39,681 nucleotides of DNA, from NCBI RefSeq assembly GCF_003334815.1, contig NZ_QOWO01000035.1; one strand, written 5' to 3'. Shown piece after piece: positions 32,231 through 32,491 of the stretch. Source of the stretch: Escherichia coli (GTDB lineage Bacteria > Pseudomonadota > Gammaproteobacteria > Enterobacterales > Enterobacteriaceae). Under the pieces are notes generated by a model, which did not search any database, was not told where the DNA came from, and saw only the letters and a program-made list of their open reading frames with translations. The translations under genes were made by a program, and so were the position numbers. The stretch's first letter is position 1. Each line of letters begins with the position of its first letter.

Positions 32231-32491
32231 AACTCCATGAATACGGTGGTATGTCTTTTTAATCCTGCCAGTATTTCATAGGTTTTCTTAATCGATTGTA
32301 GAGGCATGTTCTGATGACGCCTCTACAATCTTTAGGGACTTTCTCTGCTATGAGATAAGAAATTTCATATTATGCTTTGAGGCTGAATGATTTGTGCAAA
32401 ATATAATTATTTTCCCATCGAACATGAGGTGTATGTCATAAGATAAAATGTTAACTATGTATTCCTCGCGGTAAATAATATGAGGTAAAAT

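Follow-up and report, generated by a model that had tools for sequence, protein, structure and literature searches.

Between yhiL and yhiJ of Escherichia coli lies a perfect inverted repeat, and the question raised by this locus is whether the repeat belongs to the end of the first gene, to the control of the second, or to neither. The initial annotation of this DNA had offered three readings: a yhiL terminator, a protein operator controlling yhiJ, or an RNA structure in the yhiJ leader.

The Inverted Repeat and Its Gene Setting

The window analysed, a stretch of 39,681 nucleotides, is the reverse complement of MG1655 ~3.63-3.67 Mb, with 99.94% identity. It is not the MG1655 reference sequence itself, since 18 mismatches and 3 gaps separate the two (5 mismatches in one aligned piece, 13 and the gaps in the other), and it lacks IS5T (insH11), which is inserted in yhiS of MG1655 (region 11851-13051 of the window); for this reason MG1655 coordinates are shifted by 1200 below 13047. 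Near the hairpin, an MG1655 coordinate is 3665082 minus the window coordinate, so that the hairpin corresponds to 3632752-3632788 on the minus strand. The features of the locus, in window positions, are the following:

30624-32230, + strand: yhiL, the upstream gene, a frameshifted pseudogene in K-12 (RefSeq annotation of W3110-P and MG1655)
32285-32291, + strand: predicted 5' side of a basal stem extension (UUCUUAA), pairing with 32332-32338 in the MFE fold
32294-32305, + strand: 5' arm, GATTGTAGAGGC
32306-32318, + strand: loop of 13 nt, ATGTTCTGATGAC, the most variable part of the hairpin across E. coli haplotypes
32319-32330, + strand: 3' arm, GCCTCTACAATC
32331-32338, + strand: weak U-tract, TTTAGGGA, which can also pair with 32285-32291
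32492-34114, + strand: yhiJ (DUF4049), the downstream paralogue of yhiL (annotation and list of open reading frames)

Both genes encode DUF4049 paralogues and both are on the + strand; the open reading frames of yhiL in the window are 30587-31861 and 31922-32230. The setting between yhiL and yhiJ was as initially described, with a spacer of 261 nt from the yhiL stop (32230) to the yhiJ ATG (32492), and this spacer is 100% identical to those of W3110 and MG1655. In K-12-type sequence the hairpin starts 64 nt past the yhiL stop and lies 162 nt ahead of the yhiJ ATG. RefSeq annotates nothing at the site. The 12-bp inverted repeat itself was confirmed, the arms 32294-32305 and 32319-32330 being complementary at 12 of 12 positions (100%) around the 13-nt loop, as were its contrast in base composition (46% G+C in the hairpin versus 34% in the spacer) and the weakness of the T-tract in the tail that follows it, TTTAGGGA.

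An imperfect 15-nt direct repeat (32250-32264 and 32279-32293), ending in TTAATC, abuts the hairpin, and the 5' arm with its flank (32284-32303) has an alternative, weaker pairing (70%) with 32343-32362, 13 nt past the 3' arm; either of these may be due to chance or may be a trace of the origin of the palindrome. Two further candidates were rejected. The mini-ORF ATG-TTC-TGA of the loop was dismissed on inspection, since GAGG ends 1 nt ahead of its ATG, and the TACAAT present in each arm was dismissed as a -10 element, since there is no acceptable -35 and the scan detected nothing there.

Chance Expectation and Predicted Folding

Of 20,000 dinucleotide shuffles of the spacer, only 10 yielded a perfect inverted repeat (12 bp or more, loop 3-20 nt). 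Over the whole window, 6 repeats of at least 12 bp were observed against 0.06 expected, and 13 perfect repeats of at least 10 bp against 0.69. The shuffle rate of 0.06 per 39.7 kb amounts to ~7 chance repeats per 4.6-Mb genome, and the statistics are thus insufficient alone to establish a function; the argument rests on position and on comparison.

The 37-mer is predicted to fold stably as RNA on either strand, at -18.3 kcal/mol (z -5.5) on the + strand and -19.8 kcal/mol (z -7.1) on the - strand. The stem has 12 bp, 6 of them G-C. On the + strand, three inner pairs beyond a 2-nt bulge reduce the nominal loop of 13 nt to an apical loop of 5 nt, and in the MFE fold of 32284-32345 (-24 kcal/mol, z -5.8) seven basal pairs, 32285-32291 with 32332-32338, are added. 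The tail after the stem is UUUAGGGA on the + strand, with a short U run (UUUA), and GAUUAAGAAAACC on the - strand.

Mapped onto the MG1655 annotation, 11 of the 13 window repeats sit just past the 3' end of a gene or sRNA (gadA, arrS, hdeD, slp, agrB, agrA, gor/dinQ, dtpB/rsmJ, yhiM, yhiL and yhhJ), and several of these gene-end repeats, that of yhiL among them, are devoid of a U-tract. The hairpin of hdeD, with a stem of 14 bp (MG1655 3657585-3657617), has a Term-seq 3' end at 3657621, 4 nt past the stem (PMC7815308), and is an internal positive control for this class of gene-end hairpins. As a side observation, the 3' repeats of hdeD (8665-8697), gadA (120-162) and slp (11715-11743) are all perfect, of 12-15 bp, past the stop codons and without a U-tract, and none of the three is annotated in RefSeq. 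The repeat at 120-162 was also considered as the terminator of GadY; this was ruled out, as mapping to MG1655 places it as the gadA 3' hairpin, and the GadY terminator is of the normal U8 type.

Transcription Termination

Past the yhiL stop, on the coding strand, the stable G+C-containing stem of a canonical intrinsic terminator is present, whereas its U-tract (at least 5 U in 8) is not found in UUUAGGGA. Loops of such terminators are short (~3-8 nt), compared with a nominal 13 nt here and 5 nt in the + strand fold. A consensus terminator scan of 31800-32700 returned no terminator-like site, the hairpin being missed because a minimum of 5 T in 8 is required and its tail contains 3. The TransTermHP-style tail score of the hairpin is -3.6, a value that falls just beyond the TransTermHP minimum.

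For the yhiL/yhiJ strand, a Rho termination region has been published whose best position is MG1655 3632784 (Adams 2021, PMC7815308), which is window position 32298, inside the 5' arm. Its Rho score, computed over 800-nt windows and therefore of coarse resolution, is 2.77 with p 5e-6 (PMC7815308). Reads upstream/downstream of this position, whose counts are low here, were 73/36 in untreated samples and 182/249 with bicyclomycin (BCM) (PMC7815308). With BCM the downstream reads exceed the upstream ones, so that transcripts starting past the hairpin must account for part of the effect. The Term-seq tables for LB at OD 0.4, LB at OD 2.0 and M63 contain no 3' end at 36326xx-36328xx (PMC7815308), which is weak negative evidence, since expression of this H-NS-bound locus is poor. 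Nor was an entry for the locus seen in the other published 3'-end and start-site datasets that were consulted.

In the study of Dar and Sorek (2018, PMC6061677), transcripts that depend on Rho were shown to end at stable stem-loops, devoid of U-rich tails, by which they are shielded from PNPase and RNase II. Two features of this class were found at the yhiL hairpin, namely a stable stem-loop without U-rich sequence after it and a read-through that increases under Rho inhibition, the latter at the 800-nt resolution of the published table. Directly 3' of the hairpin there is no C-rich, G-poor rut tract, the GC skew being 0 to +0.39 over 32300-32500. The only C-rich tract lies upstream of the hairpin:

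31900-32019, + strand: C-rich, G-poor tract (GC skew -0.38 to -0.41), candidate Rho loading region in K-12

This tract directly follows the K-12 yhiL frameshift stop (31859-31861), and part of the Rho signal may thus be ordinary pseudogene polarity in K-12.

The Predicted yhiJ Promoter

RpoD genomic SELEX proposed a constitutive yhiJ promoter in the yhiL-yhiJ spacer, marked as H-NS-bound and given as 'TTGACG-19-TATAAT' (PMC3946193). The only spacer sequence with this geometry is TTGAGG-19-TATAAT, and on the basis of this match the SELEX promoter was assigned to 32377-32407, as a predicted element:

32355-32373, + strand: ATAAGAAATTTCATATTAT, the most conserved block of the spacer and start of the yhiJ promoter module (alignment with E. 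albertii and a divergent Escherichia lineage, L013)
32377-32407, + strand: predicted sigma-70 yhiJ promoter, with TTGAGG (32377-32382), a 19-nt spacer and TATAAT (32402-32407)

The predicted yhiJ start is at ~32414, which places the hairpin ~84-120 bp upstream of it, with its centre at ~100 bp. A structure in the yhiJ leader, as initially suggested, is disfavoured, since the only proposed yhiJ promoter sits downstream of the hairpin and leaves it outside the leader.

The block ATAAGAAATTTCATATTAT ends 3 nt ahead of the predicted -35. It may resemble an RcsB box (TAAGAAT-ATTCCTA); no published report of yhiJ as an RcsB target was found in the literature. Position 32379 is G in K-12 and A in the other 11 haplotypes, a difference that changes the predicted yhiJ -35 from TTAAGG to TTGAGG. 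In E. coli ZH142 an IS1 is inserted in the spacer (L024:961-1934; ~window 32358), ~50 nt past the hairpin and ahead of the predicted yhiJ promoter.

Comparison with Other Lineages of Escherichia

According to protein clusters, YhiJ homologues appear confined to Escherichia. A scan of species-representative genomes with a YhiJ protein pattern found no relative, and a DNA scan of the representative genomes with the promoter block returned only an unrelated Thermoguttaceae MAG, rejected as a chance match. The representative genomes evidently do not have the locus, and the comparison across species is for this reason limited to E. albertii (L008 and L009) and to the divergent lineage L013, which were found via the protein clusters.

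E. albertii, whose YhiJ is 57% identical, has the same gene order, yhiN / yhiL-like / yhiJ / yhiY / yhiI. In L013 the YhiJ is 87% identical and most of yhiL has been lost. The proximal part of the spacer is kept in both, including ATAAGAAATTTCATATTAT, the -10 region, CATAAGATAAAAT and the ribosome-binding site, while the hairpin is absent at the equivalent place in E. albertii (z -0.6) and in L013 (z +0.8), compared with z -5.8 in K-12. BLAST homology ahead of yhiJ resumes at 32328 in L013 and only at 32355 in E. albertii, so that the hairpin belongs with the 3' end of yhiL and not with the yhiJ promoter.

When L013:3275-3840 is compared with window 31303-32327, the 3' half of yhiL and the spacer up to this point are seen to be deleted, the right breakpoint falling within the 3' arm, at its last three bases, which may be a coincidence or the mark of a deletion promoted by the palindrome. 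In one Logan assembly (L014:4001-5668) a single yhiL::yhiJ chimera without spacer was observed, formed by recombination of the paralogues near window 31284/33089; no such chimera was found among 5426 complete E. coli genomes. As far as these alignments indicate, the hairpin arose within E. coli and can be lost without obvious consequence.

Distribution and Variation within E. coli

A 62-nt query was found in 4171 of 5426 complete E. coli genomes, at a median of one place per genome and never on the plasmid replicons of those assemblies, and the hairpin is retained in all 4171 complete genomes having the spacer. The search for the same palindrome elsewhere, as the initial annotation had recommended, showed a single copy per genome that does not correspond to a dispersed repeat (REP/BIME, ERIC or MITE) or to the end of a mobile element. 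No match was obtained in phages; the only three matches among plasmids were records of 4.8-4.9 Mb, the size of a chromosome, and none was a true plasmid. One match in a viral contig was rejected, as it shared the arms alone and lay in unrelated, apparently coding DNA. In the window, 31 matches to the half-site with at most 2 mismatches were counted versus 27.5 expected, which is no enrichment. Against Rfam 15 there was no match at the gathering score, and only eukaryotic snoRNA and miRNA models appeared below threshold (E 1.8-9). The entry P0010 is an ordinary E. coli yhiL with the same hairpin.

Variation was compared over 12 E. coli spacer haplotypes. Variation was seen at 2 of 24 arm positions, 3 of 13 loop positions and 35 of the 224 remaining ones, and the conservation of the arms does not differ significantly from that of the rest of the spacer (2/24 versus 38/237, p = 0.55). 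The two arm changes, C32305T and C32323T, each replace a G-C pair by G-U in the + strand RNA and produce an A-C mismatch in the - strand RNA, and the loop change C32318T (strain 2013C-3250), on the U-G haplotype, adds an A-U pair and takes the energy from -16.4 to -19.6 kcal/mol. Across haplotypes the predicted hairpin energy ranges from -15.7 to -19.6 kcal/mol on the + strand, while on the - strand the fold weakens to as little as -13.4. These substitutions, which are three events only, weakly suggest that an RNA structure of the + strand is favoured over a DNA site or an antisense RNA.

The gene upstream seems to decay repeatedly: yhiL is annotated as frameshifted or with internal stops in K-12, 503440, 268.2 and ETEC4067 (window 30624-32230; L019, L020 and L022) and is intact in other strains. 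In every strain fetched, yhiJ is annotated as protein-coding and never as a pseudogene. With respect to the proteins, PADLOC gave no defence-system match for YhiJ or YhiL, and NCBIfam gave for YhiJ (32492-34111) a single match, far below threshold, to T4SS_Wip (Dot/Icm effector Wip), with 17 bits versus a cut-off of 300.

Interpretation of the Hairpin

We interpret the hairpin as part of the 3' untranslated region of the yhiL transcript, where it would act more probably as an exonuclease barrier or pause site in a Rho-dependent zone than as an intrinsic terminator, which could only be a weak one; to this interpretation we give an even chance. It is based on the position and strand of the hairpin, the class of gene-end repeats to which it belongs, the hdeD control, the Rho region, the boundary between the two modules and the substitutions that keep the pairing. 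RNA polymerase coming from yhiL would transcribe a hairpin whose folding energy is -18 to -24 kcal/mol; as the stem is followed by just UUU, few transcripts would be released by the hairpin alone, and termination in the hairpin zone would be mostly Rho-dependent. The 3'-to-5' exonucleases would trim the RNA as far as the stem base, by which the yhiL mRNA would be protected, and Rho termination and trimming would jointly restrict read-through into yhiJ. The hairpin would thereby mark the boundary between the yhiL unit and a separate yhiJ promoter, as an element born in E. coli and dispensable. Among the three readings first offered, the terminator has the best support: its position, strand and class and the Rho region hold, whereas the U-tract falls short of the canonical type and no mapped 3' end is recorded.

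Like the protective stem-loops of Dar and Sorek, the yhiL hairpin is stable, lies past a gene, has no U-rich tail and is found where regional read-through is sensitive to BCM; unlike them (PMC6061677), it has no precise steady-state 3' end reported at its base and no C-rich, rut-like tract immediately downstream, and the Rho effect in K-12 may simply be polarity from the yhiL frameshift. With a canonical intrinsic terminator it shares a stable hairpin in the sense orientation past a stop codon, followed by U residues, but these are three U and then A/G-rich sequence, and the nominal loop is of 13 nt. It is similar to the hdeD 3' hairpin in being a perfect inverted repeat just past a stop codon without a U-tract, and differs from it in that the mapped 3' end found at hdeD, 4 nt past the stem, has no counterpart on record at yhiL. 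In 1987, Newbury et al. reportedly described the malE-malF intercistronic REP hairpin as mRNA-stabilising. As with REP-type hairpins, the yhiL hairpin is located between two genes of the same strand and could make the upstream message more stable than the downstream one; it differs from them in not being a REP, in its single copy per genome and in that yhiJ appears to have its own promoter.

Among the other explanations, a neutral palindrome without function, arisen through mutation within the E. coli lineage (template switching that perfected a quasi-palindrome would be one route) and not decayed since, is unlikely but has to be taken seriously. It would agree with the absence of the hairpin from E. 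albertii and L013, with its loss by deletion in L013 and in the L014 chimera without obvious consequence, with arms not significantly more conserved than their flanks, with the ~7 repeats expected by chance genome-wide and with the lack of a 3' end mapped at the hairpin; against it are the yield of only 10 in 20,000 spacer shuffles, a location typical of functional gene-end hairpins, the retention in 4171 of 4171 genomes with the spacer and the fact that 3 of 3 substitutions in or beside the stem keep or improve the pairing of the + strand RNA. An efficient Rho-independent yhiL terminator, working alone despite the short U run, we regard as improbable. The stable stem (-18.3 kcal/mol) followed by UUU and the tail score of -3.6 are consistent with it, but the consensus scan of 31800-32700 was empty, the nominal loop has 13 nt, 32285-32291 can pair with the U run and sequester it, and no Term-seq 3' end is reported while read-through is BCM-sensitive.

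An RNA structure regulating yhiJ, whether in a long leader with its start upstream of 32294 or by attenuation of yhiL-yhiJ read-through, is quite improbable: the genes are on the same strand, the downstream reads rise with BCM and the pairing of 32284-32303 with 32343-32362 (70% complementarity) offers a weaker alternative fold, but the sole proposed yhiJ promoter is downstream of the hairpin, the scan found no promoter-like site between the yhiL stop and the hairpin, a distance of 162 nt from the yhiJ ribosome-binding site makes its occlusion impossible, the hairpin is not kept alongside yhiJ in E. albertii or L013, and no Rfam family matched. Typical operators are unlike 12-nt arms set 13 nt apart, and the operator for yhiJ initially proposed, or more generally a DNA site for a dimeric regulator of yhiJ or yhiL, is very improbable, despite the perfect dyad symmetry and the location in an H-NS-bound, regulated region. 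The arrangement of arms and gap is atypical, the half-site is not repeated in the window beyond expectation, no second copy exists in E. coli genomes, phages or true plasmids, the centre is ~100 bp upstream of the predicted yhiJ start, the arm substitutions break the DNA symmetry while keeping the RNA pairing, and E. albertii and L013 have kept the yhiJ promoter block but not the repeat. It is similarly very doubtful that the hairpin is a recent, E. coli-specific switch that sets how much transcription enters yhiJ from yhiL or from spurious internal promoters silenced by H-NS; such a switch could pause RNA polymerase and so license Rho, or use the alternative helix between 32284-32303 and 32343-32362, and the expression of the two DUF4049 paralogues would then be coupled. 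A hairpin of a - strand (antisense) transcript, one started for instance by the promoter-like site 32398-32369 of this strand, is the idea to which we attach hardly any probability. The - strand fold is as stable as that of the + strand (-19.8 kcal/mol) and this weak site is ~40 nt away, but the variant haplotypes lose 4-6 kcal/mol on the - strand and little on the +, there is no U run past the - strand stem, and promoter-like sites are no more numerous than in shuffles.

Significance

Understood as a 3'-end hairpin of yhiL, the repeat is most likely an unannotated example of a familiar element and not a new kind. It is uninformative on the function of YhiL and YhiJ (DUF4049), and its importance goes little beyond annotation. 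If added, it would be one more 3'-end hairpin on the K-12 map, at a published Rho termination region, and would define the boundary of the yhiL and yhiJ transcription units. It would also constitute a small case of a gene-end hairpin born within one species and tolerating only changes that preserve RNA pairing.
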